The translations under genes and the position numbers were made by a program. Shown here piece after piece: positions 5,298-40,899 of a DNA stretch of 64,000 nucleotides. Each line of letters begins with the position of its first letter. Positions within the stretch are counted from its first letter, which is position 1. A model generated the notes under the pieces. The model had not been told where the DNA came from. It ran no database searches and saw only the letters and a list, made by a program, of their open reading frames with translations. This DNA comes from Squalus acanthias (lineage: Eukaryota): the NCBI GenBank assembly GCA_030390025.1, contig CM059432.1:40612001-40676000 (forward strand). The letters run 5' to 3'.

Positions 5298-7450
5298 GGC
5301 CCGGATTTTGCGGTCAGCGGCGAAGTGACGGCGCTCGCCGCTGACCTCGAAGAAAGCTGCCCACAAAGATCTAGCGAGCTCTGTGGTGTGGATTTCACCT
5401 TTCTCGATGTTAATTTCATTCTGGCATCACCTATAGGGGATCTCCGGCTTCCAGCAACAGTGATGTTATCAAGCAGGCTAAGCAGCCAATCACAATGTAG
5501 AATTCTCACAGACAGCAAACCAGGAAGTAAAAAGTACTGATTATGCTTCACTTTTTAATCATTTTACAGAGAGCGAAATAAAGATTGGGACAGGGATTAA
5601 GGTAAAAGCTGAAATATCATAAACAAACTTTAAAAATAAAAGTATTTTTTATTATTTTAAAAATCTAGGAATTTTATCAATAGAGAAATGACATTCCACA
5701 AATAAAAAAATCGTTTCAGTGGACGCATTGGTTGTCATCGTCCAAAATTCTATAGATTCTGGAATGGATTTGGGAAAATGCTGGAATCTATTATAAAGGA
5801 TGCAATAACTGGGCACTTAATGATAAGATTGGGCAGCGTCAACATGGATTTATGAAAGGGAAATCCTGTTTGACAAACCTATTGGAGTTGTTTGAGGATG
5901 TAACTAGTGGAGTAGACAATGGGGAACCGGTAGATGTGATGTACCTGGATTTTTAGAAGGCCTTTGATAAGATCCCACACAAGAGATTGCTGAACAAAAT
6001 GAGGGCACCTGGAATTGGGGGTAATATACTAGCATGGATTGAGAATTGGTTAACAGACAGAAAACAAAGAGTAGAGATAAACGGGTCTTTTTCAGGATGG
6101 CAGGCTGTGATTAGTGGGGTACCGCAAGGATCGGTGCTTGGGCCCCAGCTATTCACAATCTATATCAATGATTTGGATGAGGGACTAAATGTAACATCTC
6201 CAAATTTGCTGATGATACAAAGCTAGCTGGTAGTGTCAGTTGTGAAGAGGATGTGAAGAGGCTTCAAGGGGATCTCGACAGGCTCAGTGAGTGGGCGAGA
6301 ACATGGCAGATGGAATATAATGTGGATAAATGTGAAGTTATCCACTTTGGTAGAAAAAACAGAAAGGCAGAGTATTTCCTAAATGGTGAAAGATTGGGGA
6401 ATGCAGATGCTCAAAGGGACCTGTACATGAGTCACTGAAAGTGAATGTGCAGGTGCAGCAAGCCATTAGGAAGGCAAATGGTATGCTGGCCTTCATTACA
6501 AGAGGATGTGAGTACAGGAGTAAAGAAGTCTTACTACAATTATATAGGGCCTTGGTGAGACCACACCTGGGGTACTGTGTACAATTTTGGTCTCCTTACC
6601 TAAGGAAGGATATACTTGCCATAGAGGGAGTGCAACGAAGGTTCACGAGATTGATTCCTGGGATGGCGGGACTGTCGTATGAGAAGAGATTGAGTAAACT
6701 AGGCCTGTATTCTCTTGAATTCAGAAGAATGAGAGGGGATCTCATTGAAGCATACAAAATTATTACAGGGCTTGATAGGGTGAATGCTGGGAGAATGTTT
6801 CCCTTGGCTGGGGAGTCTAGAACCAGGGGCCAGCACCTCAGGATAAAGGGTAGGCCATTCAGGACTGAGATGAGAAGAAATTTCTTCACACAAAGGGTGG
6901 TGAATCTTTGGAATTCTCTACCCCAGAGGGCTGTGGAGGCTCAGTCATTGGGTATATTCAAAACAGAAGTCGATAGATTTCTGACTAGTAAGGGCATCAA
7001 GGGATATGGCGATAGGGCCGGTGAATGGAGTTGAGGCAGAAGATCAGCTATGATCTCATTGAATGGCGGAGCAGGCTCGAAGGGCCGAATGGCCTACTCC
7101 TGCTCCTATTTCTTATGTTCTTATGTGCCAGAGAGGTTGCTCAGCAGTAATTATGACTTAGTACGCTGTTAAAAAATCAGTTACTCTTCATTCAACAAGG
7201 CATAACTTTTTTTTTTTTTAAAGGGGTTTTACAGCATGAATAGTGTGTAAAAAGTTCACATCAATTCAGTGATTTTAATTGATTTCCATCTGTGAGGACT
7301 GCAACAGCGCACCCTGTGGAGGAGCAGGATATCACTGACAGCAACTTCAGGATTTCCATGTTTAAATACTCCAGATGTTGCTGTCAGTTTTACAGAGTAT
7401 TCTTTGTAATTCTATGTATTTATATGTAACAACCAGCAGAAAAGCACAAA
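5298..7450. mobile_element. Harbinger-type MITE interrupted by CR1
   Basis: Starts GGCCCGGATTTT, like the 54369 TIR; right end not clearly found. Confidence 0.4.
5722..7125 (+). mobile_element. HER1-like CR1 LINE 3' part, inserted in a MITE
   Basis: [22 protein letters not shown]; tail ...TTCTTATGTTCTTATGT. Confidence 0.92.
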
Positions 7451-8652
7451 CCCTCAATAAATTATACCGTAGGTAAGAATAAAATATCGGCTTCCACCAC
7501 AGTTTGCCGTGGGTTTTGACAGCGGCAGTCCTGTATTCCAGGGTGAAGGCTGGGTATTATTTCTCAGAAGAACCTATCAGCTGATGCCCCCATCCCCTCC
7601 CCCTCCACATTACACCCTTAGGGTAATGTTAGAGAGAGTGAGGGTTTACAGCATTGTGGAGCTTGCATGGAAAACGTTCGTAATTGTAATGATACTCGTG
7701 ACAGAAAATCACAAAGATCGAGTGGTAAAACTCGAATAGTGAAACTTTGAAAAGTTGAACAATGCAAAACTTTGTAAAATTTCTAACAGAACAAATAGTC
7801 TTTGGGAATGTGTTCACTGCAGTAACACAATTTCATGCTTTAAGCAACAATCATAACCCACTCAAGCTTTACGCTGCAATTTATCATATCTGAGGCCCTA
7901 CATTGTATTACTTACTTGTACCACTCTCTGAAGCATCCTTCTCTATGTAACAAGTTACAGTTTCAGCACTAGATGCTCTGTTGCAATGATTGACTAGAAG
8001 AGCACTGCAAGCTTGGCAGAGGATGTATTTTATAAGAATATCTGTGAAATGTACATGCTGTCAGCCACAGACAATTCCCAATGCTGGGTGAGAAACAGAA
8101 AGAATACAAAATAATTCCTTTAAATATGTAATTATAGTAATGGTAATCACCTTGTTTTATCTGCATTGTATTGATGAATAAACCTGGTGAGTTCAAGCTA
8201 TTATTGGTTTTAATTATCTGACTCTCTTACACTTTCACACATTCTGATAATGAAATACTGTACCCTCTATGGACAGGGTATTCACACATCAAATCACATA
8301 GCTAATTGACCTTTTTGCTCAACAAATTGAACAGATGACACGAGAGACAATCTAAGTGGTTTTGTGTTTGGTTCCTAACACAACTAAGACTATGGAACAG
8401 CACTCGTTCTTAACCTTTACACTGCCACGTGCAAGTTTACTCATCTGGGCATGCTACTGATTTGCAGGCCACTAATGACTTTAGTTGCCTGTCAGTAGCC
8501 TGTTACAGTTCCAATTCGTAAAAAATGGTTAGAGATTGATAGGTGGTTCAGTTTTGTTCAGGCTGTGAATAGATCAGCCACATATATCAGGAGGGTTGCT
8601 AGCTTCATTCCTAATCTGTACTGATTTAGCAGCTCTAAATTGGAGCAGCTAT

Positions 8653-11605
8653 ATTTTTTTGGTTCATGGGATGTGGGCCTCGCCAGCAAGGCCAGCATTT
8701 ATTGCCCATCCCTAGTTGCCCTTGAGAAGGTGGTGGTGAGCCACCTTCTTCAACCGCTGCAGTCCGTGTGGTGAAGGTACTCCCACAGTGTTGTTAGGGA
8801 GGGAGTTCCAGGATTTTGACCCAGCGGCGATGAAGGAACGGCGATATATTTCCAAGTCAGGATGGTGTGTGACTTGGAGGGGAACTTGGAGGTGATGGTG
8901 TTCCCATGCGCCTGCTGCCCTTGTCCTTCTCGATGGTAGAGGTCGCGGGTTTAGGAGGTGCTGCCGAAGAAGCCTTGGCGAGTTGCTGCAGTGCATCTTG
9001 TAGATGGTACACACTGCAGCCACGGTACACCGGTGGTGGAGGGAGTGAATGTTTAAGGCGGTGGATGGGGTGTCAATTAAGGGGGCTGCTTTGTCTTGGA
9101 TGGTGTTGAGCTTCTTGAGTGTTGTTGGAGCTGCACTCATCCAGGCAAGCGGAGAGTATTCCATCACACTCCTGACTTGTGCCTTGTAGATGTTGGAAAG
9201 GCTTTGAGGAGTCAGGAGGTAAGACACTCGCTGCAGAATACCCAGCCTCTGATCTGCTCTTGTTGCCACAATATTTATGTGGCTGGTCCAGTTAAGTTTC
9301 TGGTCAATGGTGACCCCCAGGATGTTGATGGTGGGGGATTCGGCGATGGTAATGCCATTGAATGTCAAGGGGCGGTGGTTAGACTCTCGCTTGTTGGAGA
9401 TAGTCATTGTCTGGCACTTCTGTTGCGTGAATGTTACCTGCCACTTATCAGCCCAAGCCTGAATGTCGTCCAGGTCTTTATTATCTGAGGAGTTGCGGAT
9501 GGCACTGAACACTGTGCAGTCATCAGCGAACATCACCACTTCTGACCTTATGATGGAGGGAAGGCCACTGATGAAGCAGCTGAAGATGGTTGGGCCTAGG
9601 ACACTGCCCTGAGGAACTCCTGCAGCGATTTCCTAGGGTTGTGATGATTGACCTCCAACCACCACAACCATCTACCTTTGTGCTCGGTATGACTTGAGCC
9701 AGTGGAGAGTTTTCCCCCCCGATTCCCATTGACTTCAGTTTTACTAGGGCTCCTTGATGCCTCCTCGGTCAAATGCTGTCTTGATGGCAAGGGCAGTCAC
9801 TCTCACCTCACCTCTGGACCAAGGCTGTAATGAGGGCGGGAGCCGAGTGGTTCTGGCAGAACCCAAACTGGGCATCAGCGAGCAGGTTATTGGTGAGTAA
9901 ATGCTGCTTGATGGCACTGTTGATGACACCTTCCATCTCTTTACTGAGGATTGAGAGTAGATTGAAGGGGCGGTAATTGGCTGGATTGGATTTGTCCTGC
10001 TTTTTGTGGACAGGACATACCTGGGCAGTTTTCCACATTGTCGGATATATGGCAGTGTTATAGCTGTACTGGAACAGCTTGGCTAGAGGCACGGCTAATT
10101 CTGGAGCACAAGTCTTCAGCATGACAGCTGGGATGTTGTCGAAGCCCACAGCCTTTGCTGTATCCAGTGCGCTCAGTCGTTTCTTGATATCACGTGGAGT
10201 GAATCGAATTGGCTGAAGACTGGCTTCTGCGGTGGGGGAGACCTCAGGAGGAGACCGATATGGATCATCCACTCGGTGCTTCTGGCTGAAGATGGTTGCA
10301 AATGCTTCAGCTTTGTCTTTTGCACTCATGTGCTGGGTTCCACCATCATTGAGGATGGGGATATTCATGGAGCCTCCTCCTCCCATTAGTTGTTTAATGG
10401 TCCAACCACCATTCACAACTGGATGTGGCAGGAGTGCAGAGCTTTGATCTGATCCATTGATTATGGGATCGCTTGCCTGGTGCTGCTCCTGGCATGCTCT
10501 TCTACACTCCTCATTGAACCAGGGTTGGTCCCCTGGCTTGGTGGTAATGGTAGAGTGAGGGATATGCCAGGCCATGAGGTTACAGATTGTGGTGGAATAC
10601 AATTCTGCTGGCCCACATGGATGTCCAGTTTTGACATCTGTTCTGAATCTATCCCATTTAGCACAGTGGTAGTGCCACACGACACGATGGAGGGTGTCCT
10701 CAGTGCGAAGACGAGATTTTGTCTCCGCAATGACTGCGGTGGTCACTGTCATGGACAGATGCATCTGCGACAGGTAGATTGGCGAGGACGAGGTCAAATA
10801 GGTTTTTCCCCTCGTGTTGGTTCTCTCACCACCTGTCGCAGGCCCAGACTGGCAGTTATGTCCTTCAGGACTCAGCCAGCTTCGGTGCTACCGAGCCACC
10901 CTTGGTGATGGATATTGAAGTCCTCCACCTAGAGTACATTCTGTGCCCTTGCTACTCAGTGCTCCTTCCAAGTGGTGTTCAACATGGAGGAGTACTGATT
11001 CATCAGCTGAGGGAGGGCGGTAGGTGGTAATCAGCAGGAGGTTTCCTTGCCCATGCTTGACCTGAAGCCATGAGACTTCATGGGGTCCAGAGTCAATGTT
11101 GAGGACTCCCGAATGTATACCACTGTGCCGCCACCGGTGGGACAGGACTTATCCAGGGATGGTGTATGATTCTGTGAGTATGACTATGTCGGGCTGTTGC
11201 TTGACTCGTCTGTGGGACAGCTCTCCCAATTTTGACACAAGTCCCCAGATGTTGGTGAGGAGGACTTTGCAGGTGCTGAGGTCATCCGGTTTTATTCTTA
11301 TTCGTAGCAGTTTTTTACAACTGAGTGGCTTGCTAGGCATTTCAGGGGGCAGTTAAGAGTCAAACATATTGCTGTGACTCGAGTCAAATATAGGTCAGAC
11401 AACAGATTTCCTTCCATAAAGAACATTAGTGAACCAGACGGGTTTTTATGACAATCTGATAGTTTCATGGTCACCATTACTGATACTAGCTTTTTATTCC
11501 AGGTTTTATTTATGCCGCGGTGGGATTTGAACTCTTGTCTCCGGATCATTAGGCCAGGCCTCTGGATTACTAGTCCAGTAACATAACCACTATACTACTG
11601 TTCCC
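8653..11605 (-). mobile_element. Near full-length decayed CR1/L2-group LINE with tRNA-like 5' head, APE endonuclease and RT, no ORF1
   Basis: A box, anticodon arm and B box at 11522-11597; endonuclease N-terminus KVLLTNIWGL..QQPDIVILTES at ~11170-11268; RT motifs ([18 protein letters not shown]); ORF stop at 8712; A-rich tail; interrupts a Deu-SINE. Confidence 0.85.
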
Positions 11606-19168: not shown

Positions 19169-19320
19169 CCCCAGGTGAGTTACCCAACAAGAATGGCAGG
19201 AGGTGGCCATCAGCTCTGAGCACCATGTCACACACCTGCAGGCAATGCTGGAACAAGTTTAATGACTTTACCAGGCTGGGCAAGGCAAAAAAAACACTGT
19301 TGCCTTCCATTAATTCAGTA

Positions 19321-20381
19321 ATGAGAAGTCGCACAACACCAGGTTATAGTCCAACAGTTTTATTTGAAATTACGAGCTTTCGGAGCTCTGCTCCTTCTTC
19401 AGGTACAGTGAGGGAATACAAATCGATTACACAGTATATATAGACAGAGAACAATGTGTCTGCAGAGATACAATCCGTCAGGGAGGCATTACATCAAAGA
19501 CACAGCAGGGTACAGCTAAGACAATGAGGTGGGTCACAGGGGGTCCAACGTGTCAAATGCTGCAGACTGCAGTTAAACTTTTTTTTTAAACTGGAAAATC
19601 AGACAACGATGTCGAGTCACGTTCTGTAACGTGACATGAAACCGAGATCCCGGTTGAGGCCGTCCTCATGGGTGCAGAACTTGGCTATCAGTTTCTGCTC
19701 GATGATTTTGCGTTGTCGTGTGTCTCGAAGGACGCCTTGGAGAACGCTAACCCGCAGATCCGAGGCTGAATGTCCTTGACTGCTGAAGTGTTCCCCGACT
19801 GGGGAACGTATGAACGGACACTGCGCAACAATCGCCAGGCAGGATTGTTACCTCCCAGTCGGGGAACACTTCAGCAGTCAAGGACATTCAGCCTCGGATC
19901 TGCGGGTTCGCATTCTCCAAGGCGGCCTTCGAGACGCACGACAACGCAAAATCATCGAGCAGAAACTGATAGCCAAGTTCCGCACCCATGAGGACGGCCT
20001 CAACCGGGATCTCGGTTTCATGTCACGTTACAGAACGTGACTCGACATCGTTGTCTGGTTTTCCAGTTTTTTAAAAAAAGTTAAAAGCTTAACTGCAGAC
20101 TGCAGCATTTGACACGTTGGACCCCCTGTGACCCACCTCATTGTCTTAGCTGTACCCTGCTGTGTCTTTGATGTAATGCCTCCCTGACGGATTGTATCTC
20201 TGCAGACACATTGTTCTATGTCTATACATACTGTGTAATCGATTTGTATTCCCTCACTGTACCTGAAGAAGGAGCAGAGCTCCGAAAGCTCGTAATTTCA
20301 AATAAAACTGTTGGACTATAACCTGGTGTTGTGCAACTTCTCATTTTTGTCCACCCCAGTCCAACACCAGCATCTCCGCAT
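19321..20381. mobile_element. Palindromic 5'-truncated Penelope-like element (inverted arm plus sense arm with 3' tail)
   Basis: Arms 19321-19803 and 19854-20344 are reverse complements; GIY-YIG C-terminal ORF 19810-20040; TSD CATTAATTCAGTA at 19308-19320 and 20382-20394. Confidence 0.9.
20260..20294 (+). ncRNA. Minimal type I hammerhead ribozyme motif (mirror copy 19371-19405 on minus)
   Basis: TAC-CTGAAGA-A-GGAGC aga GCTCC-GAAA-GC-TC-GTA. Confidence 0.85.
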
Positions 20382-23300
20382 CATTAATTCAGTATACTAA
20401 GCATCCACGTCATTTACAATTACCTTCCCTTCACACTTGCACTTCCAATGCTGACCATGGGCGCGATTGTGCAGAAGGTTCACTTAGCACTATAAGTCTT
20501 CCATGGAACCGTTACTTCACTCACACTTTGCATGCAGTCAGTCAAAAATATTCTTCCAATAGTGCCAGAGCATATTATCCTTCATGGGCTGCATCTGACA
20601 CTTGGGTATCACTGCATATCATCAAGACAATGACAACCTCCCAGTTCTACCTTGAATGCAGGACAGCTCATAAGTAAAGAGAGCGACCAGACACAGGAGG
20701 ATGACCCCCTAATATTTCTCCTGTTACCCCATATAAGGAAGAAGCCTTACAAAACTTGGGGCTAGGGGGCTGGATACAGTGATGTGGAAACTCACAGTTT
20801 GTTGCAATCTTCTGCTATTTTATCTCATCCTATTCTCTCATTCAATCATTGGTGACAAAAAATATACCGAAGAACTTTACTATGTCAATCTTTCTACTGC
20901 AAACAGTAAATGAAGGATGTTCAAAAGGACACTATAGGAACCTCTGTTCTTTTTCTGTTTCTCCAGGTGTTTCATAGGGAGCTGAGCCAGGACTCATTAC
21001 ATCTGCAAGCCAGCCCTTCTTATGATTCACTATAATTCCTTGCAACCGCCAGCTTAGATACAACTACCATGGGGATATTTAGATAGTGACTGCACTGGGC
21101 AAAATACAGAGCATACATGAGCAAGAGGTGATGGTGGCAAATGAGCAGGAGGAACATGCTGCCTGGAGGATCAGGTTGCATCTCACTCATCTATCAAAAC
21201 TAGAGACCTGGGGCTTTTGGACCTGTATTTAAAATAAAAATTCACTTTGTGTACCAAGTGCGTTATCCCTAGGGACTATCTCACGCAGCATACTGCGGAT
21301 AACAATTTCGGTAGAGTTCTCTAGCAGCATGTATGCAGCCTTTCACGATGGTTTCACAGAACTGAGCATATGGAAATTCTACGGACATCTGCAGCAGAAC
21401 CCCCCATAGCAGAGGACCAAAGTCTAGTTGGTGCTTCTGTAATGGATGTTCAGACTGCTACTATAAAGGCTAGTGTTCTAGAGTGGAATGGGCTATGAGA
21501 AAACAATGGTGGAGGAATGATACTCTTTCCTTGGGTGTCTTTAGCATACCCTGCAAATATGATGCAAGTTCAGTACTCTCACGCTCCCAGCAGGGAAATT
21601 GCACTCGAAGGGAGCACAGGTCAGAAATAGGGCTACAGAAATACCCTTGGGGCATTCCTCCCACTGGACCACAGAATTGGTGAATTTACCCGACATTATT
21701 TTCTGAATGTGCTGGCAAATACGTTGTGGCAGAATGTTTACACAGCGTTGTTTATGTTTATTGCACTATATTGACAAGCCTTTCAATTTGGACACCGTTG
21801 GTCATTTTGATGGTTTCCAAAAGAAATATGAACCCATCCACTGAATGGCCAGATATAACATTGCAGGCATATGCACCATATACACATCTGGAAGATTATT
21901 GCTGCTTAACTATTTCCTACAGTTGTGCCAGTCAATGTCCTTCATCTCTAAAGAGCCAGATTGAAAGCTGGCCCAGAAAAAGAGACTGCAGGTTTCTGCT
22001 GGTGGCAATTGAGAGACAAAGGCCAAGCTAAATTCTGTCAATCTCACAGCAATCAATAAGTATGGGTCTGAAAACACAAATCACCCAGATGCAACATTTC
22101 ATTGTGAATAAAATTTCAACTCTAAAGAGTCTAGAATGGATAGTGTAAAGCCCATTAATAGTTGATTGATGCAAAGGGACACTCTTGGAGGATTGCGTGA
22201 TCAAAGAATTACAGCAATTTTATCTAATCTGTAAAAAGATTTTCAAAACTGGACTAGATTAGCGTAGACTAAAGAAGAAAAAAAACTTGCTTCAGTTTCA
22301 GCCTTGAATTTAATTGAAGTTGGATTCATTCAAATGCTGTGACCTCAATAGTAGGGCCAGCAGTGAGAGGATTGCAAGATTTCATTAGTACTAAAACTAA
22401 AATTGCTAATTAGCTTGCCCGGAGTCAGCATACCTAGCCGAACATTGCATTCTCCAGTAATGGGTGAATTACCAAGGCACGAACTTCAATTGAAAAGTTA
22501 AGGAATGAAATACATTTAACTCACAATAAAAATTAACAGTGAGTGCAACAAAAGGCTGTTGTTTACAAAAAGGCAAGATCTGCTTTGATACAAGATTTTT
22601 TTTTATTGGATTTGAGGAACGAAGATAAAAGACGTGTCTAATAAATTGTCTAATGCGATGAGACTCCAAGGTTGTACATAAATTAAATAAAAAACAGATG
22701 CTGGAAAAATCTAAGGATATCGTTGGAAAATCATAAATAACTGAAAGTTTTTGTTAAATCTCTTAAATTATTTCTTAAAATGAAGTCCAAGAAAGAAACT
22801 TGGAAGGGACAGAAGAGAGGATCAGCCCTAAAAAGTCAACAGGAATCCCTTTAAAAAAAATGGAGACAAGGCAGAGGTAGTCTGTGCCTCCACCAGCTAA
22901 TCTCTTCTTTGAAGGAGGACGGTTTTATTCAGATGCCTGCAACTAGTTAGAGTCTGTCCTTTAAATATATATACATATTTTTAAATTCTCATATGTTCAG
23001 AGATTTTACCATGAATAAAATAATCAGTTGGATTCCAGCTGCTTGCTTTTGTACTGATATGAGAGTGTTGCCCTAATCCTGCAAACATACCTTGAATTAT
23101 TTATTAGGAGAGAATGGATTGAAGTGAATAATAAGCCTGTTGGGTGAGAACTGCTAGTTAAATCAGCAGAACTTGCAATACTCAAAATTACTAGTTAACT
23201 CTTGTAAACATATGCAATGGACGCCGTCTTCGTGGACAAATGTTTGGTAAACTATTTTTAGAGAGAGAGAGTGAAAAAAGTCACACTCCCTTTTTGTCAC

Positions 23301-24576: not shown

Positions 24577-27122
24577 ATATCCCTTTCAATTCTAATCCCA
24601 TGGCGGGCTGAATTTCAATTGATTCCATTGGGACTTTAAAGCATTTTCAACGTAATCGTGTGTTTCAAAGATAAGTGCAGACGGCAAAATGTAACCATGT
24701 TTGTTTATTCCGCTATTTCTCTGCACGATGTCACTAAACAACACAGTAGTTCCCTCTTAGGGCAATATTTGCTTAGCGGAGCGTGTGAAAATGCTAATAT
24801 TTAGTTGGTGATTAAAAACCAACAGGATGATTTAATCTGAAGTGTGTCTGTTCGCTTGCAGTATGTTTGTGAATTCAGCCGAGTGTTTGGAAATCTGTTG
24901 TGGATAGAGATGAAATAACAGCGGCAGAGTCAACAGAGAGGGGAAAGTGCATTCCTACATAACAGTAATGTAAAAAAAATCTATTTCAAGACCAGTCTTA
25001 CGAAACATTGATGAAGGCCAATCTGATAGGATTTTTTTTTGGAAAAATCGGAAATCGACAGCAGTTCTTTAAATTAGTGCAAAGTAAATCTGTTTATTTT
25101 TATTGTCAAAAGTCAACACAGACTCTCCATGCACATGTCCTGGGTGTTCAGTGTAAAAACACCACGCTTTCATTAGCACAGTCCCTGCTGTCCAGCCTCC
25201 CCAATAAAACTCGGATTAAGAAAGGCTCACATTCTGCTTTAATTAAGTGGAGATCTGTCTCTTTCTTCCTGGCCAGTTGACAATCTAAAGGTTATTGTTC
25301 CACAAATATACACAAGGGAATTGAATCAGTTCGCGTGTAATTATAAAATGATTTCATTAATTTCCCAAAGACACGCTGGGTCATCCTCGCACGATTTCTC
25401 ACCGGGTTCCGTCCCAACCCTGAACACACCCCATCACAGTGAATGGTGTTTTTGTTTTAAAAGCAAATAGGTTGACAGCAGCTCTTTATTCTTTTGCGCT
25501 ATTAAATACCAGCGTCGATCTAAACCAACAAGATCCTACTCCTGGCTATTGCAGCTCATTCTCCCGTAAAGTATAATAGACAGAGCGCAAACGGACAACT
25601 TGAGCCCGCATGTATCGCTGGGATCCTTGAACAGCGAAACACACCCACCGAGCCCCCTCCATTACAGCTTGAGTGTGTATACTGCAATTTCAAACAGATT
25701 GAAAATAAAATTGAACAACAAATACGTAAATACTGGAGCTGATGAGGTAACAGAGAGGGTTGATGAGGGCAATGTGGTGTACATGGACTTCCAAAAGGCG
25801 TTGGATAAAGTGCCACATAATAGGCTTGCCAGCAAAGTTAAAGCCCATGGAATAAAAGGGACAGTGGCAGCACAGATACGAAATTGGCTAAGTGACAGGA
25901 AACAGAGAGTAGTGGTGAATGGTTGTTCATCGGACTGCAGGAAGCTACACAGTGGTGTTCCCCAGGGGTCGGTACTAGGACCACTGCTTTTCTTGATATA
26001 TATTAATGACTTAGACTTGGGTGTACAGGGCATAATTTCAAAATTTGCAAATGACACAAAACTTGGAAGTATAGTGAACAGTGAGGAGGATAGTGATAGA
26101 CTTCAAGAAGACATAGACAGGCTGGTGGAATGGGCGGACACGTGGGAGATTAAATTTAATGCAGAAAAGTGCGAAGTGATACATTTTGGTAGGAAGAAAG
26201 AGGAGAGGTAATCTAAACTAAAGGGTACAATTCTAAAGCAGGTGCATGAACAAAGAGACCTGGGGGTATATGTGCACAAATCATTGAAGGTGGCAGGGCA
26301 GGTTAAGAAAGCGGTTAAAAAAGCATATGGGATCCTGGGCTTCATAAATAGAGGTCATGATGCGGAGATGCCGGTGTTGGACTGGGGTGGACAAAATTGA
26401 GAGGTCGCACATCACCAGGTTATAGTCCAACAGTTTTATTTGAAATCACAAGCTTTCGGAGCTATCGCTCCTTCCTCAGGTGAAGTAAATTGGATACAGA
26501 ATCGCCAGAGCATATATAGATGGAAAAAAAAGCATGTGTACTTTACAATTGCAGACCAATAAATTAAATCATCCTGACTATCTGCCGAGGTGTGATAAAG
26601 TTAATTAAGTCAGCCAGGAAGGTACCACATCAAAAGACATAGCAAGATACAACTGAGACAATGAGGTGAAGTCGCAGGGGTTCTAACGTGTCAAAAGCTG
26701 CCGTCTGTATGTAAAACGAAAAGCTTTAAAAAAAATTTACTTTTTTACTGGGAAAATTTTTACTTTTTTACTGGGAATCACATCTGTGAACAAGCTAACG
26801 ACGACTCGAGTCCGGATCACGTCATGTATCGTGACATAAACCCAAGATCCCGATTGAGACCGTCTTCATGAGTGCGGAACTTGGCTATCAGTTTCTGCTC
26901 GATGATTTTGCATTGTCGTGTGTTTCTAAGGTTGCCTTGGAGAACGCTTACCCGCAGATCCGAGGCTGAATGTCCTTGACTGCTGAAGTGTTCCCCGACT
27001 GGGAGGTAACAATCCTGCCTGGCGATTGTTGTGTCGTGTGTTTCTAAGGTTGCCTTGGAGAACGCTTACCCGCAGATCCGAGGCTGAATGTCCTTGACTG
27101 CTGAAGTGTTCCCCGACTGGCG

Positions 27123-27524
27123 ACATGCCAGATCATCAACACAGATACCACCATCACACGTGAGGACACTACCCACCAGGTACATGGTACATACTCATGT
27201 GACTCGGCCAACGTTGTCTACCTCATACGTTGCAGGAAAGAATGCACCGCGGCATGGTACATCGGCGAGACCATGCAGACACTGAGACAACGTATGAACG
27301 AGCACCGCGCAACAATCGCCAGGCAGGATTGTTACCTCCCAGTCGGGGAACACTTCAGCAGTCAAGGACATTCAGCCTCGGATCTGCGGGTAAGCGTTCT
27401 CCAAGGCAACCTTAGAAACACACGACAACGCAAAATCATCGAGCAGAAACTGATAGCCAAGTTCCGCACTCATGAAGACGGTCTCAATCGGGATCTTGGG
27501 TTTATGTCACGATACATGACGTGA
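27123..27524 (+). pseudogene. Uninterrupted GIY-YIG endonuclease domain of the PLE ORF (5' truncated, RT absent)
   Basis: Translates TCQII...YSCDSANVVYLIRCRKECTAAWYIGETMQTLRQRMNEH...EQKLIAKF...GLNRD. Confidence 0.9.
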
Positions 27525-27857
27525 TCCGGACTCGAGTCGTCGTTAGCTTGTTCACAGATGTGATTCCCAGTAAAAAAGTAAAAATTTTCCCAGTAAAAAA
27601 GTAAATTTTTTTTAAAGCTTTTCGTTTTACATACAGACGGCAGCTTTTGACACGTTAGAACCCCTGCGACTTCACCTCATTGTCTCAGTTGTATCTTGCT
27701 ATGTCTTTTGATGTGGTACCTTCCTGGCTGACTTAATTAACTTTATCACACCTCGGCAGATAGTCAGGATGATTTAATTTATTGGTCTGCAATTGTAAAG
27801 TACACATGCTTTTTTTTCCATCTATATATGCTCTGGCGATTCTGTATCCAATTTACT

Positions 27858-27895
27858 TCACCTGAGGAAGGAGCGATAGCTCCGAAAGCTTGTGA
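27858..27895 (+). ncRNA. Minimal type I hammerhead ribozyme motif (mirror copy 26446-26483 on minus)
   Basis: TCAC-CTGAGGA-A-GGAGC gata GCTCC-GAAA-GC-TT-GTGA. Confidence 0.82.
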
Positions 27896-28719
27896 TTTCA
27901 AATAAAACTGTTGGACTATAACCTGGTGTTGTGCGACCTCTCAATTTCATAAATAGAGGCATAGAGTACAAAAGCAAGGAAGTTATGATGAATCTTTATA
28001 AAACACTGGTTCGGCCTCAACTGGAGTATTGTGTCCAATTCTGGGCACCACACTTTAGGAAGAATGTGAAAGCCTTAGAGAGGGTGCAGAAAAGATTTAT
28101 GAGAATGGTCCAGGGATAAGGGACTTCAGTTATGTGGATAGACTGGAGAAGCTGGGGTTGTTCTCCTTAGAGCAGAGAAGGTTAAGAGGAGATTTGATAG
28201 AGGTGTTCAAAATCATGAGGGGTCTAGACAGAGTAGATAGAGAGAAACTGTTCCCATTGGCAGAAGGGTCAAGAACCAGAGGACACAGACTTAAGGTGAT
28301 TGGCAGAAGAACCAAAGGCGACATGAGGAAAAACTTTTTTATGCAGCGAGTGGTTAGGATCTGGAATGCACTGCCTGAAAGGGTGGTGGAGGCAGATTCA
28401 ATCATGGCTTTCAAAAGGGAATTGGTTAAGTACCTGAAGGAAAAAAAATTGCAAGGCTATGGAGAAAGAGCGGGCGAGTGGGACTAACTGAAGTGCTCTT
28501 GCAGAGAGCCAGCACTGGCTCGACAGGCCGAATGGCCTCCTTCTGTGCTGTAACCATTCTATGATTAATCAGATGGTATTTTCCCTTTAGTCCGAGTTGA
28601 ATTCCACAGATTGTCAAATTATTGGGCAAGTTATTAGTGGACCAAACCGCAACCCCTTCCTCACCCCATAGAAGAGTTCATGTGTTAGATGCTAAAATGA
28701 CTGTAGGTTAGCAGACTTT

Positions 28720-29590
28720 TGTGGGGATGTTCGCTGATGACTGCACAGTGTTCAGCACCATTCACAACTCCTTAGATAATGAAGCAGTCCATGCCCGCAT
28801 GCAACAAGACCTGGACGACGTTCAGTGCCAGGCAATGACTATCTCCAACAAGCGAGAGTCTAACCACCTCCCCTTGACATTCAATGGTATTACCATCGCT
28901 GAATCCCCCACCATCAATATCCTGGGGGTCACCATTGACCAGAAACTTAACTGGACCAGCCAAATAAATACTGTTACAACAAGAGCAGGTCAGAGGCTGG
29001 GTATTCTGCGGCGAGTGTCTCACCTCCTGACTCCCCAAAGCCTTTCCACCATCTACAAGGCACAAGTAAGGAGTGTGATGGAATACTCTCCACTTGCCAG
29101 GATGAGTGCAGCTCCAACAATACTCAAGAAGCTCGGCACCATCCAGGACAAAGCAGCCCGCTTGATTGGCATTCCATCTACCACCTTAAACATTCACTGT
29201 CTCCACCACCGGCGTACCGTGGCTGCAGTGTGTACCATCTACAAAATGCACAGCAGCAACTCGCCAAGGCTTCCTTCGGCAGCATCTCCCAAACCTGCGA
29301 CCTCTTCCACCTAGAAGGACAAGGGCAGCAGGCGTATGGGAACACCACCTCCTCCAAGTTCCCCTCCATTCACACACCATCCTGACTTAGAAGTATATCG
29401 CCGATCCTTCATCGTCGCTGGGTCAAAATCCTGGAACTCCCTCCCTAACAGCACTGTGGGAGTACCTTTACCACACGGACTGCAGCAGTTCAAGAAGGCA
29501 GCTCACCACCACCTTCTCGAGGGCAATTAGTGATGGGCAATAAATGCTGGCCTTGCCAGCGATGCCCACATCCCATAAATGAATTAAAAA
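28720..29590 (+). mobile_element. 5'-truncated copy of the tRNA-headed LINE family
   Basis: RT C-terminus nearly identical to ORF 8712-9539; same tail. Confidence 0.9.
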
Positions 29591-31169
29591 TAACTGTTAA
29601 GTGTTATACACCTGTAAGATCAGGTATGTGGCATTTTCAATGTGAGCAGTGTAAAAAAAATTAAGAGTCACCATAGCCTTTTGTTTACAAGGGGAAGGGG
29701 TTAAGACAAATTGGGAGAGGAAAGTGAACAGTTTAGATACTTCTTTACACAGAGGACAGTGAATATATAGAACAGACTGACCATGAAATAGTGGAGTTAG
29801 ACATTTTCAGTAAATTCAAGAGTAAATGCTTGGCAGAGAAATCGATTAAGGGGTATAAGAGATTAATACTTTTTAATGAATATACATTATAATTTAGTTC
29901 TAAACTTTCAAACCATTATGATTTAGCTTCCAAATCCATGGGGTCCTAAATAACAATGAAAGTCTACTTATTTTATTTTAAGTAAACAAAATGTACAACA
30001 AACCATATCCATCAGTTTAAAGCTGTTTAATCCAGTCATTCCAATGTTACCAATCTACCAGCAAGGGAAAGTATGTGTGTCTGGTTAGAACAAAAATAGC
30101 TGGATATAATGTGCCCATAATATAGTGAGCAAGAGTTCCTCTTCCTCCATTTTCATGAATATGCCTATAAAGTGAGTAGTAGGCATTACTATTGAAGATC
30201 ATTGAATAGAAAAGAATACAAGAAATACAAACCTTACTTCTTGTCGTCATGTTTTTGTCACACTTTTGTGTCATATTTATCCATTATAAATTCCTGTCCA
30301 CATTTATAATGGAAACTACCTATGTAAACTTGTCACACTGTAATTTTACCCTCCTACCAATGGTGGCACTTTAGCAACTGTTTGTATCTCCCAGCTCCAC
30401 AGCCACCGCAGGAGAGAATAATAATATAAAATCAAAGTATTATATAAAAATATGTACAAAACATAGGGTTTTAAAATGGAGATGGAATTATATATTATTC
30501 CCTACATTTTAACAGTGACGACAATTGTGTACAGAAGATCAACTAGCGTATGATTAAATAAAGGGTGCACAATAGGGATACAGAGTTCATTTCACAATGA
30601 AGTGCTGTTAACAAAACCAAGTGAATAGGGCAGCAGTGAATTAGAAAGATCTTTCTCAGTCGCATCAATTGTTCCCTTATGCGTATTCTGCTTATACACA
30701 GCTATAGGGATAGCTTTGTTTTAAGTGAGATAATTAAAGTAAGTTTATTTTTATTGAGTTTTAAGACCTTAATACTGTACATAGTGCTAGATCTATCCAT
30801 GTGGTGAATGGATGGTTTGACATTCCAATGAGACACCAAAGAAAGGCTTAAAGGCTGCCAAATCAGCAGCTTGTCAATGTAACAAAACATAAGGATTGCA
30901 GCATTGGTGCCATCTACTGCTGTGTAGAGTATTAAAAAATCCTTGGTGCTGATAATAATCTCCATTAATATGTCCAATTAAAATGATTCGTTACTTCAAT
31001 ACACAAAGTTGTTCTGGTATTAAATGTTACTAGAACAGCTGGTAAATATATTTACAATGTACAATAAAGACATAATAGTATAGTGTATCATTGGCACTCT
31101 CACCTTTTCTCCAAATCCAAAAATAGGTTCTGAAAATCAGGCATGGAAGTCAGAACACCATTTTTTCCA

Positions 31170-31556: not shown

Positions 31557-32919
31557 ACACTAAGGTATGATTCCGCTGGTGCCAAGCATCAACCAGTACT
31601 TCACTCAAAGTGACCATTCTTTATGTGAACCTTGATACTGACTGTCAGCAGGCTATTTGACACTGGAGGCAATGTATATATCTGAAGTCCACATATGCAA
31701 AAATTACAGGATAGTAATTAGGAGTGAGACTCCGAATTATTCTCCCCCACCCCTCTTCCTAGCTCAGTAATGCGGAGACCATTTGTAGCTCCCTCCATGG
31801 CTGCACAGACCAGGAAATGAAACTGGAACCTGCTGGTCTGTATGGTTCACTACCACAATGGCCAATGCCATTAACCACCAATCTCTAGAATAGACTCTAA
31901 TCAAAGAATCAGACTGTACATCTTGAGTTGATGCAATGTGGTTTTTGTATCACACTGAGACAAAAAGAGCAGTGAAACTGCAGCTTAGGTTTAATGAAGA
32001 GTGAGATTCGGATTTTTAGTAGTAGTACCATACCACCTGGAGGAGATGGTGTCTCACTGCTTCCTTCTTCACCCCAGTTGCAGTATAATTGCTACTCAAT
32101 GCATAGGTAAATTTTGAGGCTTTTCGGATGGGCTTTTGATCCACTTTAAATTTATTGTTAAAAAAAAGAGCAAATGGGATAGTCAGATCTTTTTTAACTT
32201 TAAAAAATGGTCACTACAGTTGCAGACTGATGAGCAGAGCTCTCCTTTGCCTGTTTAGAATGTGTGGCTCTCTGGTATCCACCACACTCTGGTATCCCTG
32301 GAAAATTGCCAGAATTCTCGATCCGCTATTATCTAAACATGTTACATTCTGTGCTCTGCCTCTTGCCTAACTCCAGGTGCAACTGACTATCTTCTAAATG
32401 GAGATTTGAATCCATTGAGCTGACAATGCCTTCACGACTAAATCACAAAATGTTTGTGGCTATTTAACACATTATTTCCTGCTCAGATCCTTCAGCCATC
32501 TAGGTCCCACTTTCTGGAATTCGCTCCCTCAATTTTTCCATCTCCCTTTTCTCCTTTGATCCCCTCCGTAAAACCCACCTGTTTGAGCAAGCTTGTGGCC
32601 ACCCCGCCCAATATCTTAAATAAAAACAAAAAATGCTGGAAATACTCAGCAGGTCAGGCAGCATCTGCGGAGAGAGAAACACCCAATATCTTCTTTGGCT
32701 GAAGGTCCATTTTTCTCGGGCCTCTGGCGAGGTGCCTAGGGACATTTGCTCATTAAATGTAAATTACCCTTGTTGGACTGGAATTGAGTTTTGCCAATAG
32801 TGAGGGAGGAATCGTTCTGTTCGCACGGTGATAAATGTCACATGTCTCTGGAGAGCGACACAATCTTCACGAAGATATCGGCCAATAGGTAAAGTAGGAG
32901 GATGCCGAGGGCCGCTTAC

Positions 32920-33925
32920 CTTTCTCACTGTTGACTTTGACCGTTATCTGGATGGCCGATTTGCCGCGAAGTCTCTTCGATAAATAAACTTTGCCGGAGT
33001 CCCTCTCTATCTGCACGGGGGCATCCGCCGGGGCGATCACTTCAAACCACCGTCCTTCAAACTCCCAGTCGGGGATTGTGTAAATGACATTTCCCACCTT
33101 GTCCTCCTCGGACACAGTCACCGAGTGAAACATCTGGTCCGGCACTGACCGAGCTGCTCTCCTGCCTTCAGGAAGTCCCAGAGCCCTGGGTTTTACGTTG
33201 ACCAGGACTGTCAGAGGGTCAGTGACCTGGGCGACCAGACCTTTATCCCGGCCATAAACTGACAGGTGGAGGGGCTCCATCCCCATCAGAGAGCCCACCA
33301 CCAGGATTTGGCCAGTCCGTGGAACCACGAACAGCTGAGGGACCTCCGGGAAGGGGCGATAGCTGATTTCAGCATTCCTCCCTTCATCGTGATCCGTGGC
33401 GGTCACTCGGGCGATCTCGGATCCCACAGCAATCATTTCGTCCACGTCCACCCTCGTCGCTTGCTCCGAACCGAACAGCGGTCTGTTGTCGTTCACATCG
33501 CGGACCCGAACTTTAACCAAAGCAGCGGTGCAGTTGGACCTGTCGGGGCAGCTGGGCGCCGAGAAGCAGCGGAGCGTCAGGACGTAGAGCGATCTCCCCT
33601 CCCGGTCCAAAGGTGCTGCGGTTCTCAGCAGGACGTTGCCCTCGCCGTGGTGATGGTAGAGCTGGAAAACCGAGCCTCCTCCGTCCCCGCCGAGCTCAAC
33701 CTGGAGCCTGGCCCCGGCAGGGTGCAGCGGGCAGACCCTGCGGCCAGGGAGGCTGACGCCGCTGACTTTGGTGCCAGGTGAAGAGCTTTCAGAGACGTGG
33801 CCGTAAAACACCGGTGTGGCGGCAGAGGAGCCGGAGTCCCGGAGAGCCAGAGAGAGCAGCCACAGAGAGTGAAAGAGGAACGAAGGGCCCCCGAGACAGT
33901 GGCGGCTCTCAGGGAGGAGCTGCAT
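32920..33925 (-). CDS. First coding exon of a large cadherin, probably DN-cadherin/type III ('neural-cadherin-like'): signal peptide, two cadherin repeats, RAAR site, further atypical repeat
   Basis: ATG at 33925; hydrophobic leader; LDRE, DVNDNRPLF and ATDHDEG calcium-binding motifs; G|GTAAG donor at 32920/32919 (phase 1). Confidence 0.85.
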
Positions 33926-33959
33926 GACCGGCACCCCAGAGGTTGCAAACTAAAGATGC

Positions 33960-34677: not shown

Positions 34678-34767
34678 AAATGAGAAGTCGCACAACACCA
34701 GGTTATAGTCCAACAGTTTTATTTGAAATCAGAGCTTTCGGAGCGCTGCTCCTTCGTCAGGTAAAGT
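34678..34767 (-). mobile_element. 90-bp PLE mini-insertion (hammerhead plus pLTR end)
   Basis: Matches the arm terminus of the element at 19321; CTGACGA...GAAA core; flanked by CA(A/T)TGGTCAC direct repeat. Confidence 0.8.
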
Positions 34768-37187
34768 CATTGGTCACGGCATCGCTCGAGTCCAGTGGAA
34801 ATACTGAATGGCTATTACCTATTGAAATTGTATTGGGTAGATTATCTTCGTATCCATGAGAATTGGTCACTACAATACAGACAGACTATCGCTCATATTA
34901 ACTGGCCACTAATCTATTAAGAGTGCAGCTTCCATGGTCAGTAACTTTAAATGACTCTTTGTAATGGTCAGTAATGAACAGCAAACTGGCAGCACAGGAT
35001 TTTAGAGAGACAGACTGAGATATTTTGAGCTGTTTTGCCAGCAAGATGTTCAAACAGTTGGTAGATATCATGGTATCTGAGTCCTAGACTTTTTCTGAAG
35101 GTAATTTGCAAGTCTACAAGTAAAACCGAAACAATTTTCAGCGAATGCAATTTCATGTTTGGAACGCTCCAACTGTGTCTTTGTTGAAAAGTGCAACGCT
35201 GTGATTTAATTTGCAGCAAGAATAAACCTAATTACGTTTCGTGCGTTGCATGTAACCTTATTCTGACAAAATAATATTTTCTCCCCTCAGTGACCAAGAC
35301 CTCCATTCATGGGAAGGAAGGAAGAGGAGAGAAAAACATTATTTACCAATTTAGGTGGAAGAGGACATTATAACACGACCTGGTCTCCTTTCATTTAATT
35401 TAAACTCCGAGCTATCCTTCACAGGATCAAGTCTCACACAGATTTAATGTGCTCTGGCGGAAGCCGACAGAACAACCCCTCAAACCTACTACAAAAACAA
35501 TCAGAAGACCTGGCAAGGTCCCATTTTCATTTTTGAGAAAAAAAAGACAACATTTTTACCGTCAGCTGAACTAATCTCGAGTTACATGAGCTGTGATATT
35601 CTGTTTTTACACCGCATGCTATTTTGGTTATGGATGAAAAATAATAGCTGTTGCAAATCGTTTCTGTGAAGCGTCAAAATTGCACACGCAACAACCTCTC
35701 TACATAAGCAAAACTCAACCAACCTATCGAAATGCTGGAGGTTTGTAAGAACTTTACAGTCATGACAGTCTTACCGAAAGGTGCCCAGTTTTGCAAAACG
35801 CCGCATTAAAAGTAAAGACTTTTATGAAGGAATTTATTCCTCTACCTCCATCCCTCCATCATGTGTTTAAATTACGGATTGCAAAAAGCGCAAAAAATGA
35901 ACGCTTCACTACGGCAGTGAAGAAGTCTGTTAAATACACATCACAGATAAATTTGCAGCAAGTAAACCCGAACAATAATTATTTTCCGTTGAAGTAGATC
36001 ATGGATAAATAAATTAGAAGCCTGTAATCTAATTTAATAAACAGTAAAGCCTAATGATACTCAAACAACGAACATAATTGAAGTTCGCTTACGAAGTATC
36101 TAACGTTGATTATACACTGTTAATACGGATAAATCTTCCTCTTGCAACACAGCCAAATTGTTTGATATGCAAGTTTTTCAAATACCGTGATAGTGATACA
36201 AAGTGAAGAGCATTTCCACATGTTGAGGACTGGAGTTTGGAACGGAATGACCTGACAGGGTCTGTAGTATTCATAACTATTAAATAGATTACAGGAAAAA
36301 TATATATACACACTAGTCGCATGGTAAGTTGCAGCCAGAGGAAGGATGAAGGAACGGAGAAGGGTAAGGGAGGAACAATAGAGATGATGAGAGAGGAGAG
36401 GGGGAAGGAAGGGGAGGAGGAGGGCGAGCAGGGGCGAAAGGGGAGAGGAAGGGGAGGCAGAAGAGGGAAAATGAGGCCAGCTTACAGTATGGGCTAAAAA
36501 TTCGGGGGCTTTATGCCACCTGTTACCGCCAAAAAATCGCAAAAAGAGGGCAGCAGCCACTCTTTCACCAGCTGGTGGCGGATAGGATGGGATATGTTAG
36601 GGGGAATTAAATACGTGGGGTTACGGGGGTAGGGTGGGATATGTGTACTGTGGGGATTAAAGCAGGGACAGGGTACTGGACTTGGATGATCAGCCATGAT
36701 CGTATTGAATGGTGGAGCAGGCTCGACGGGCCGAATGGCCTACTCCTGCTCCTAGATTCTATGTTTCTATGTTTCTATCCCGCAGCACCCTCCATTTTCC
36801 TAGGCCCAGCAGCACTGCCAGTAAGATCCATCGCTCTGCAAAGTAAAATGAGGGAGCAGTGATGTCAGTCGGCGTACAATGCCAACTTAACGTCACCACG
36901 GCGAACTTAGATCTTTGCGCTCAGTTCAGCGCTTGGTCCTACACTCGCCATGTAAACCCAGCATGCAAGCAGACTCACAGAGGCACTGTCAGCACCTCTT
37001 AAATATCACACACACATCTTTCAGTTAAGTTTGCATTTAAGCTATTGGACTGGGCTTTTTTGATTTTACTGAAGTAGTGGCTTGCTGCAATAGATGTTAA
37101 AAGTTTTTTAAGTGTGTAGGGTGTGCTGCTGGATGCTTGCAAGGCCTCGGATGGTAAAGGAAGGCCTCTGAGCAGTCAGAAAAAGCC

Positions 37188-37318: not shown

Positions 37319-37898
37319 CGCAAAGGGAAAAGAAAGATGCTGAAGAGGAAGATGCCTTTTAACAATCGTACATTTGCAGATTTTACACTAGTAGATAGTA
37401 TTTAGTGTCATTGTCTAGTAAATATAGAGACCCCAAATCAAACCAAAAATTCCCTTCCCAACCTCAAAAAATGGGAAAAGTACTTCAGTACTAACACAAA
37501 TGGCTAAGCAAGCCAGGGAAGAGGCACCCAGGGTCTCGCATGCAGCACTCCAGCTTTGTGTGGGGTCAACACTGCAAGAGAGGTCCTCTACCCACTGGAC
37601 CAGGAGGCCCTCCAGAAAGAACAATGTGGGACCACACCACCAAGGCCGTCACTGCCAGCAGTGCCGCCCCCACCACCTGGCTCCATGCCCAGAGAAGCTT
37701 AATGACCTTAGACCACTGGACAAGGTCAGTGAATGCATCTTTAAAAGCCATCTCCTACTAACTGCAGCACTAGCCTCAGACAGTACTCAATGCAGGACTC
37801 CCCCTGCCTCTCCACCCCGATCACTTACCTACCAACAATCTGTACCAATCACGAGACACATCTCCCATTCCTAACCTTACCTCACCCCCTTGGAGGCA

Positions 37899-39344
37899 TT
37901 TAGAAAAACGTACTGCAGTCAAACAGAGTCAGCATGGTTTTAGGAAAGGGAAATCATGTTTAACAAATTTGCTGGAGTTCTTTGAGGATGTAACAAGCAG
38001 GGTGGAGAAGGGTGGGCCAGTGAATGTGGTGTATTTGGATTTCCAGAAGGCATTCGATAAGGTGTCACATAAAAGGTTACTGCATAAGATAAGAGCTCAC
38101 GGAGTTGGGCATAATATGTTAGCATGGATAGAGAATTGGTTAACTAACAGAAAGCAGAGTCGGGATAAATGGGTCATTTTCTGGTTGGCAAATGGTAACT
38201 AGTGGTGTGCCACAAGGATCGGTGCTGGGGCCCCAACTATTTACAATCTATATTAATGACTTGGATGAAGGGATCAAGTGTAATGTAGCCAAGTTTGCGT
38301 ATGATACAAAGATGGGTGGGAAAGCAAGTTGTGCAGAGGACTCAAAGAATCTGCAAAGGGATATAGACAGGCTAAGTGAGTGGGCAAACATTTGGCAGAT
38401 GGAGTATAATGTGGGAAAGTGCGAGGTTATCCACTTTAGCAGGAAAAATAAAAAAGCAAACTATTATTTAAATGGAGAGAGATTACAGAATGCTACAGTT
38501 CAGAGGGACTTGGGGGTCCTTGTGCATGAAACACAAAAAGTTAGCATGCAGGCACAGCAAGTAATCAAAAAGGCAAATGGAATGTTGGCCTTTATTTCAA
38601 GGGGGTTGGAGTATAAAAGCAGGGAAGTCCTGCTACAACTGTACAAGGTATTGGTGAGACCACACCTTGAGTACTGTGTACAGTTTTGGTCTCCTTATTT
38701 AAGGAAGGATATACTTGCATTGGAGGCAGTTCAGAGACGATTCACTAGGTTAATTCCAGAGATGAGGGGGTTGACTTATGAGGAAAGGTTGAGCAGGCTG
38801 GGCCTATACTCACTGGAATTTAGAAGAATGAGAGGTGATCTTATTGAAACATATAAGATACTGAGGGGGCTCGACAGGGTAGATGCAGAGAGGATGTTTC
38901 CCCTCGTGGGGAAATCTAGAATTTGGGGGCACAGTCTCATCATAAAGGGTCGCCCTTTTACAACCGAAATGAGAAGTCGCACAACACCAGGTTATAGTCC
39001 AACAGATTTATTTAAAATTACAAGCTGTCGGAGCTGTCGCCCCTTCGTCAGGTAAAGGTACAATCTCCGCATCATGACTTTTACAATCGAGATGAGGAGG
39101 AACTTCTTCTCTCAGAGGGTCGTAAATTTGTAGAATTCTCTGCCCCAGAGAGCTGTGGAGGCTGGGTCATTAAATACATTTAAAGTGGAGATAGACAAAT
39201 TTTTGCAAGATAAGGGAGTGAAGGGTTATGGGGAGCGGGTTGGGAAGTGGCTTTGAGCCCTAGATTAGCCATGATCTTATTGAATGGCGGAGCAGGCTCG
39301 AGGGGCCAAGTGACCTATTCCTGCTCCTATTTCTTATGTTCTTA
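37899..39344 (+). mobile_element. HER1-like CR1 LINE 3' part containing a mini-PLE
   Basis: ORF 38192-39055 RT; TTCTTATG tail. Confidence 0.92.
38968..39077. mobile_element. 110-bp PLE mini-insertion in CR1: inverted hammerhead arm plus 15 nt of sense tail
   Basis: TSD CTTTTACAA(C/T)CGA at 38955-38967 and 39078-39090; tail ATCTCCGCATCATGA at 39063-39077. Confidence 0.85.
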
Positions 39345-39374
39345 TTTACAGCATCCGCTCGCAGAGGGAACAGG

Positions 39375-40163: not shown

Positions 40164-40708
40164 CCTCCAAGGGGGTGAGGTAAGGCTAGGAATGGGAGAT
40201 GTGTCTCGTGATTGGTATAGATTGTTGGTAGGTAAGTGATCGGGGTGGGGAGGCAGGGGGAGTCCTGCATTGAGTACTGTCTGAGGCTAGTGGTGCAGTT
40301 AGTAGGAGACGGCTTTTGAAGATGCATTCACTGACCTTGACCAGTGGTCTAAGGTCATTAAGCTTCTCTGGGCATGGAGCCAGGTGGTGGGGGCGGCACT
40401 GCTGGCAGTGACGGCCTTGGTGACGTGGTCCCACATTGTTCTTTCTGGAGGGCCTCCTGGTCCAGTGCGTAGAGGACCTCTCTTGCAGTGTTGACCCCAC
40501 ACAAAGCTGGAGTGCTGCATGCGAGACCCTGGGTGCCTCTGCCCTGGCTTGCTGCGCCATTTGTGTTAGTACTGAAGCGCTTTTCCCATTTTTTGAGGTT
40601 GGGAAGGGAATTTTTGGTTTGATTTGGGGTCTCTATATTTACTAGACAATGATACTAAATACTACCTACTGGTGTCAAATCCGCAAATGTACGATTGTTA
40701 AAAGGCAT
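40164..40708 (-). pseudogene. Harbinger-derived Myb/SANT-like gene relic (inverted duplicate at 37352-37896; related relic at ~19170-19290)
   Basis: MAQQARAEAPRVSHAAL...W...TW..C..KLNDL pattern; 19117 ORF contains QCWNKFNDF. Confidence 0.55.
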
Positions 40709-40899
40709 GTTTGCAATAGGTAATGTAAACATAGTTTACAAAATGATAAGCAATAGATAACACAAGAGTAAATAAAATTGAATGGTGTTTTCAAGACCTT
40801 TCTAATCAATGTTATTTCAGACTGTAGAAGGGGGAGAAGGCAAGTGCTAAGGTCGGAGCCCACGTCAGGTTGCTGTGTGTCCCCTGGATTATGATTCTT

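Follow-up and report, generated by a model that had tools for sequence, protein, structure and literature searches.

Hammerhead-like motif at 20260–20294 and its copies

The stretch analysed here (64,000 nucleotides of Squalus acanthias DNA, hereafter the window) carries at 20260–20294 a short sequence with the layout of a hammerhead ribozyme. Is this motif a genuine hammerhead, which kind of element does it belong to, and would the copies found here cut RNA?

As read directly, the motif opens with TAC, the 5′ arm of stem I, followed by the core CTGA-A-GA (20263–69) and one extra A at 20270. Stem II is composed of 20271–75 paired with 20279–83 (5 bp) and closed by an AGA loop. The 3′ side consists of GAAA (20284–87), GC, T20290, C20291 (position H17) and GTA (20292–94). 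A BLAST search of 20260–20294 against the window retrieved six full copies including the query, distributed in four insertions, A to D:

20260–20294, plus strand: motif A+; core intact, stem I of 3 bp, stem II of 5 bp, cut predicted after C20291
19371–19405, minus strand: motif A−, in the inverted arm of insertion A; identical to A+
27858–27895, plus strand: motif B+; core intact, stem I of 4 bp, H17 is T27891; the best-folding copy
26446–26483, minus strand: motif B−, the inverted second copy in insertion B; identical to B+
34729–34764, minus strand: motif C; core intact, one base lost after H17, stem I of 0 bp
39018–39055, minus strand: motif D; C instead of A at core position 14 (39027), stem II with a single G-U pair

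The core C3 U4 G5 A6 N7 G8 A9 / G12 A13 A14 A15.1 / U16.1 H17 is intact in five of the six copies, the exception being D with its C at position 14. All six carry an unpaired single base between 9 and 10.1 together with a G10.1-C11.1 pair, and all lack helix III, the 15.1–16.1 stretch reading as a palindromic AGCT. A short helix I is present in five copies (3 bp in A, 4 bp in B and D); in C the first stem I pair is gone. The cut site is spanned by every copy.

An earlier, sequence-only reading had proposed this motif as a minimal type I hammerhead in the pseudo-LTR (pLTR) of a Penelope element (PLE), and every statement it made on the sequence of 20260–20294 and the related copies was confirmed by re-reading. 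Position 7 is A, G, C and C in insertions A to D, the stem II loops differ (aga, gata, agc and gaca) and one G-U wobble is found in stem II. Stem I is TAC/GTA at 20260 versus TCAC/GTGA at 27858, and stem III is cut down to AGCT, for which pairing is possible only between two copies. The four insertions it counted were also found, with six copies in place of four, since A and B each hold an inverted second one. Anatomy and location (see below) support its proposal, and the sequence is best described as a genuine minimal type I hammerhead sequence, without helix III, in a PLE pLTR.

The match exceeds chance expectation

The resemblance could be a chance match that the repeat has multiplied. We ran the descriptor search suggested by the earlier reading, with a strict form comprising the core, a stem II of at least 4 bp and a stem I of at least 3 bp. 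Four matches were obtained in the window, corresponding to the A and B copies, against a mean of 0.013 in 300 dinucleotide shuffles (maximum 1; any match in 4/300). Relaxing the descriptor recovered C when the stem I requirement was removed and D when one change in GAAA was allowed, and no unrelated site was gained. The six copies share descent and are not independent trials: they represent four independent insertions and, with respect to chance, about one event. The excess therefore shows a real motif and not six independent events.

Rfam detected no hammerhead model in the whole window (E up to 5), where five weak matches belonged to other families, nor in the 201 bases 20200–20400 (E up to 10), with four such weak matches. 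We did not count this result against the motif, since it is expected in the absence of helix III. A proponent of chance could still invoke it, together with the near-single event that copies by descent represent and the 30/300 shuffles giving one match once stem I is dropped. However, only the above 4/300 gave a match with stem I required, and the motif sits exactly where PLE hammerheads are reported, with their four traits (PMC4209133). A chance origin is thus largely refuted, and we regard it as extremely unlikely.

The motif lies in the pLTR of truncated Penelope elements

The insertions and their main components are as follows:

19320–20384, unstranded: insertion A, head-to-head PLE 3′ ends; minus arm 19320–19803 with the short end, plus arm 19805–20384 with the tail
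26355–27945, unstranded: insertion B; minus arm with the tail 26355–27031, 89-nt re-copied piece 27032–27120, plus arm 27120–27945 with the short end
34679–34800, minus strand: insertion C, a solo pLTR piece
38968–39077, unstranded: insertion D; minus arm of about 95 nt and 15-nt inverted tail stub (39063–39077)
20346–20384, plus strand: tail extension of 39 nt, at a single end of the insertion; 41 nt in B−
27123–27524, plus strand: GIY-YIG endonuclease, C-terminal part of the PLE ORF, 133 aa, in B+

Inverted arms, a one-sided tail of 39–41 nt and target duplications were observed in three of the four insertions (A, B and D). The duplication measures 9–12 bp in A (core 19311–19 and 20385–93), 14 bp in B and 13 bp with 1 mismatch in D. 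Insertions B and D each lie inside a LINE; once either is excised together with one duplication copy, the LINE again aligns without gaps to further LINE copies of the window. For C, no tail was found; a 7-bp target duplication ending at 34771 was considered and dropped, as element-like sequence runs on to about 34800. The two arms of A show 11 differences per 484 aligned bases and those of B 2 per 638, indicating that B is younger than A.

Four arms stop 54 nt past H17 (53 in C, where a base is lost) and two stop 93–95 nt past it, the difference being the 39–41 nt tail. The long end is confirmed beyond the window, as judged by loose contig ends piling up at 20384 in three public runs. This long end (26355–26362 on the minus strand; 39070–39077) stops at an ATG, and no other ATG lies between it and the hammerhead. 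Public contigs go on with GAC after 20384, and a full-length relative, P0024, starts with Met-Thr; this ATG may be the start of the PLE ORF.

In A and B, the motif follows the end of the GIY-YIG ORF, and 54 nt separate it from the short end that the arms share. The GIY-YIG domain upstream of the repeat was recognized by Pfam PF01541 (E 9.7e-5, 23.0 bits for a cut-off of 22.6). The piece is 88% identical to P0001, a shark RT-EN protein (shark proteins rank first among 41 longer homologues taken from 122 candidates), in which an RT domain is present and a C-x4-C-x2-C linker precedes the endonuclease. A CX2-5CxxC linker is found in the relatives P0001, P0002, P0012, P0024, P0030, P0034 and P0037, and the window copy ends just before its last Cys. 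Such a linker between RT and EN marks Neptune and Nematis PLEs (PMC8557442). Within the window, no sequence from the RT part of the PLE was found. These features point to a 5′-truncated, endonuclease-bearing, Neptune-like Penelope element, the clade being read from the linker of its relatives.

No same-strand tandem motif pair exists in the window, where same-strand copies are 4–8 kb apart. Assignment to a non-LTR retrozyme, which calls for two or more successive tandem units on one strand with a hammerhead in each, was rejected, the copies being inverted or solo.

Some further observations concern the element and its relatives. Among the inner truncation points (19803–19805, 27031–27032 and 27120), 4/5 fall within 50 nt of each other in the endonuclease region, at B+ coordinates 27289–27339. 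Two independent points map to practically the same place (27338 and 27339), immediately 3′ of a hairpin of 7 bp located around 27311–27333. This region is a possible stop site for reverse transcription, the folding z-score being 0.09. Several annotated shark isoforms of host genes (septin 5a, XRCC5 and others) carry this endonuclease piece (P0011, P0017, P0018, P0023, P0026, P0027, P0036 and P0039), reflecting either exonisation or annotation error. Metagenome scans gave 0 matches with a 24-nt pLTR pattern, and 1/84 candidate stretches was confirmed, at 28% identity.

Surroundings of the insertions

On the minus strand, 32867–33949 is a 360-codon open frame with a signal-peptide-like start and cadherin repeats (Pfam PF00028), lying in a CpG-rich stretch; its best solved-structure match is CELSR1. 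By its sequence, this is probably a cadherin-family gene's first coding exon, and insertion C lies about 730 bp upstream of it. Two 548-nt inverted repeats (37349–37896 and 40164–40711; 96% complementary, 2267 nt apart) enclose the LINE that contains insertion D and are possibly another mobile element. The window also contains many LINE 3′ ends with RT frames (5834–7124, 37924–39345, 60169–60939, 8646–9539 and 28721–29596) and tRNA-like SINE copies (944–1280, 55858–56192 and 62600–62806).

Variation across the family

Covariation had been described as visible across the four insertions. Within the window, a change on both sides was found in 1 of 11 pairs, the stem I pair T-A that becomes C-G, with a T-G form in C; stem II shows the single G-U of D. 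The covariation score of the window copies was reached by 97/500 shuffles and is not significant, for six rows and only four independent insertions. Thus, one compensatory stem I pair stands, while statistical support for covariation within the window does not. Slid registers pair only 28–42% of cells, with the caveat that the structure was drawn from the same sequences.

To extend this sample we used contigs from 4 of 24 listed public runs, placed on 20190–20400 (1595, 1146, 22 and 33 contigs; their RNA label is a guess). Recurrent differences occurred at 6 of the 35 motif positions (20260–20294) in these 4 runs. Four of them are 20267 (position 7), 20276 and 20278 (loop II) and 20291 (H17); the other two, 20260 and 20294, face each other in one stem I pair, the covarying one. 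Four of the six variable positions fall among the 5 that the hammerhead model leaves free (hypergeometric P 0.0014). Position 20260 differs in no more than 12 contigs of one run and 1 of another, while the counts for 20294 are 66, 58, 5 and 4; coverage of the motif's 5′ half is thin, and these two stem I changes are unphased.

A related subfamily was noticed in runs X5 and X23, where loose contig ends occur before 20280; it carries a C at core position 4, in 3 and 1 contigs only. In one contig from X5/X23, the stem II pair that closes the loop is T-A rather than C-G.

These data bear on an explanation in which the motif descends from a hammerhead and is now kept as a cis-acting region of the pLTR (promoter or RT-EN binding site), cleavage being no part of the cycle. 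Consistent with this, the pLTR farther downstream varies about as little as the motif: 0/28 constrained motif positions are variable compared to 5/49 in the downstream pLTR, a difference that is not significant (Fisher P 0.15). Nevertheless, the variation is gathered at position 7, in loop II, at H17 and in a single compensatory pair, as expected under catalytic constraint.

Folding and expected activity of the copies

Copy 20260 had been put forward for a cleavage assay and turned out to be a poor choice. In A+, ViennaRNA predicts a competing 5-bp hairpin, 20277–81 with 20287–91, which covers H17. The AGA loop and C17 favour this hairpin over stem II, making A+ unsuitable as a test copy. Accordingly, the predicted probability of stem II was 0.05–0.10 for A in four contexts, compared to 0.99–1.00 for B. 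With predicted misfolding of this kind, a blank assay of copy 20260 would not refute the hammerhead family.

In cofolding, no copy had the double-hammerhead as its minimum-energy dimer (B, −24.9 versus −31.5 kcal/mol; A, −14.9 versus −24.7), in an energy model without terms for the tertiary contacts of the hammerhead core. Short windows on the six motifs gave weak folding z-scores (−2.18 to 0.06), which were not taken as support.

The last base of loop II together with the start of the stem II 3′ strand also reads AGCU in A, B and D, and AGCU-AGCU pairing within the molecule is dominant in A, by prediction. One could therefore imagine an off state built into the monomer: loop II AGCU would base-pair with the palindrome of helix III, masking the cut site until the element's protein or a second copy refolds the monomer, head-to-head insertion silencing the landed copies. 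We consider this highly improbable.

In whole-insertion folds of A and B, 38/38 motif bases paired with the far arm in 4/4 cases, whichever strand was folded. Since A and B are head-to-head, a read-through RNA makes the antisense copy first and the sense ribozyme would be buried in a long duplex. The two other insertions are affected differently. Published rules reject hammerhead matches with a core change or with mispairing beside the core, some core variants being still active (PMC3088659). Both C and D are disqualified by these rules, D by the core change at 14 and C by the lack of a pair beside the cut site. We found no direct measurement of an A14 change in the literature, the general core-change rule (PMC3088659) being the only statement obtained. 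The sequence-only reading had flagged as probably dead only the 39020-region copy with GACA (C at 39027). This is supported for D, but C is broken too, its stem I having 0 bp. Judging from these lesions, C is probably inactive, and so, probably, is D.

Alternatively, the genomic copies could be active in host RNA, same-strand copies lying kilobases apart or on separate transcripts pairing via AGCU and cutting pre-mRNA. The cores of A and B are perfect, and each of the four insertions has a sense copy on the minus strand, which also carries the cadherin-domain exon 32867–33949. However, the sense copies of A and B are fully paired to the antisense arm in the read-through folds and C and D fail the rejection criteria (PMC3088659). 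In addition, 4 bp make a weak helix between molecules, and even close dimers show low activity in published work (PMC4209133). Such activity in host RNA is very unlikely. The copies in the window are truncated remnants that probably do not cut RNA in place.

A probable ribozyme step in full-length copies elsewhere

We consider it probable that the motif is a slow ribozyme working in tandem transcripts of full-length copies elsewhere, through AGCU pairing and probably with the help of a protein, the window copies being passive. At the level of the family, this step is inferred from published PLE hammerheads. From that literature, master copies would be full-length and head-to-tail, so that two same-strand motifs could pair via AGCU and supply helix III. 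Cleavage of the paired motifs after H17 would then be slow and probably assisted by the protein of the element. The anatomy of the insertions suggests that the window copies were written from uncut RNA, with reverse transcription from two fixed sites, 54 and about 93–95 nt past H17. Once landed, they would be passive remnants: the sense ribozymes of A and B in duplex, C without stem I and D with its core change.

All six copies cross the cut site, implying that their templates were uncut or rejoined. This agrees with uncut RNA as the main template of an anole PLE (PMC11167929). The same observation can be turned in favour of the cis-acting role introduced above. In the anole element, hammerhead mutants left in vitro insertion unaffected and, according to the same report, no RNA-seq reads end at the cut site (PMC11167929). 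However, the anole motif does cut once protein is added and responds to C3/G8 mutations (PMC11167929). A role in cis without cleavage thus appears unlikely, and a slow ribozyme acting in full-length tandem copies is the reading we retain.

The significance beyond annotation is small, minimal hammerheads being already common in fish and amphibian PLEs, and the truncated window copies give no answer on the role of the ribozyme in the PLE cycle. The practical gain is in the choice of constructs, copy B being preferred over the headline copy A+. Moreover, a young Neptune-like family with two sharp 3′ ends would be usable as a second test system beside the anole Poseidon element.

Comparison with known systems

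Minimal hammerheads (min-HHR) were described in the pLTRs of metazoan PLEs, including Xena, Poseidon and Neptune of fish, by Cervera and de la Peña (2014; PMC4209133). Thousands occur in fish and amphibian PLEs; activity is low in dimers and none is seen in monomers, and pairs of motifs on opposite strands, 100–700 bp apart, were reported (PMC4209133). Dimer cleavage by Luense et al. is described in a review (PMC6765202). The motif resembles min-HHRs in its type I core, the lack of helix III, the extra base 9/10.1, the G10.1-C11.1 pair, the palindromic 15.2–16.2 and the short helix I (PMC4209133). The pLTR location, the opposite-strand pairs and the solo truncated copies are also shared (PMC4209133). 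By contrast, helix II has 5 bp here versus 7–8 bp in the Schistosoma families described there, helix I having 3–4 bp here (PMC4209133). The four traits listed for min-HHRs are present, the compensatory change weakly so. Sharks appear to go unnamed in the main text of that paper, whose supplements may list shark motifs (PMC4209133). We found no paper on the shark PLE hammerhead family in a weak search, with only general chondrichthyan papers among the matches listed (15 of 2,687).

The Poseidon-type PLE of Anolis carolinensis, PAc (Frangieh et al. 2024; PMC11167929), likewise has a pLTR hammerhead, a tail of 30–40 nt set by two fixed 3′ ends, and templates spanning the uncut ribozyme. There, the PLE tail is explained by two start sites of reverse transcription, and hammerhead cutting is protein-assisted and dispensable for insertion in vitro (PMC11167929). 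In contrast to our element, stem II is where the PAc ORF begins, and reverse transcription is initiated within the ORF (PMC11167929). In the window, the first ATG after the motif, the putative start codon, is at the long end, about 93 nt past H17, and the closest proteins carry the Neptune/Nematis-type Cys linker.

Animal non-LTR retrozymes share with the window copies a type I hammerhead derived from PLE pLTRs, and one chondrichthyan is among the genomes with hammerhead repeats (bioRxiv 10.64898/2026.07.22.740005). They are described as same-strand tandem repeats without coding sequence, whereas the window copies are inverted or solo, with endonuclease sequence in A and B (bioRxiv 10.64898/2026.07.22.740005).

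The complex insertions of EN+ PLEs (Arkhipova et al. 2013, PMC3846280; Craig et al. 2021, PMC8557442) show a similar head-to-head inverted 5′-truncated copy with a tail at one end only. Published target duplications are about 8–10 bp compared to 9–14 bp here, and the window differs from these insertions in having neither a full-length ORF nor a direct pLTR tandem (PMC3846280; PMC8557442). Taken together, the arrangement is of a kind published since 2014, and the window holds a further member of it.
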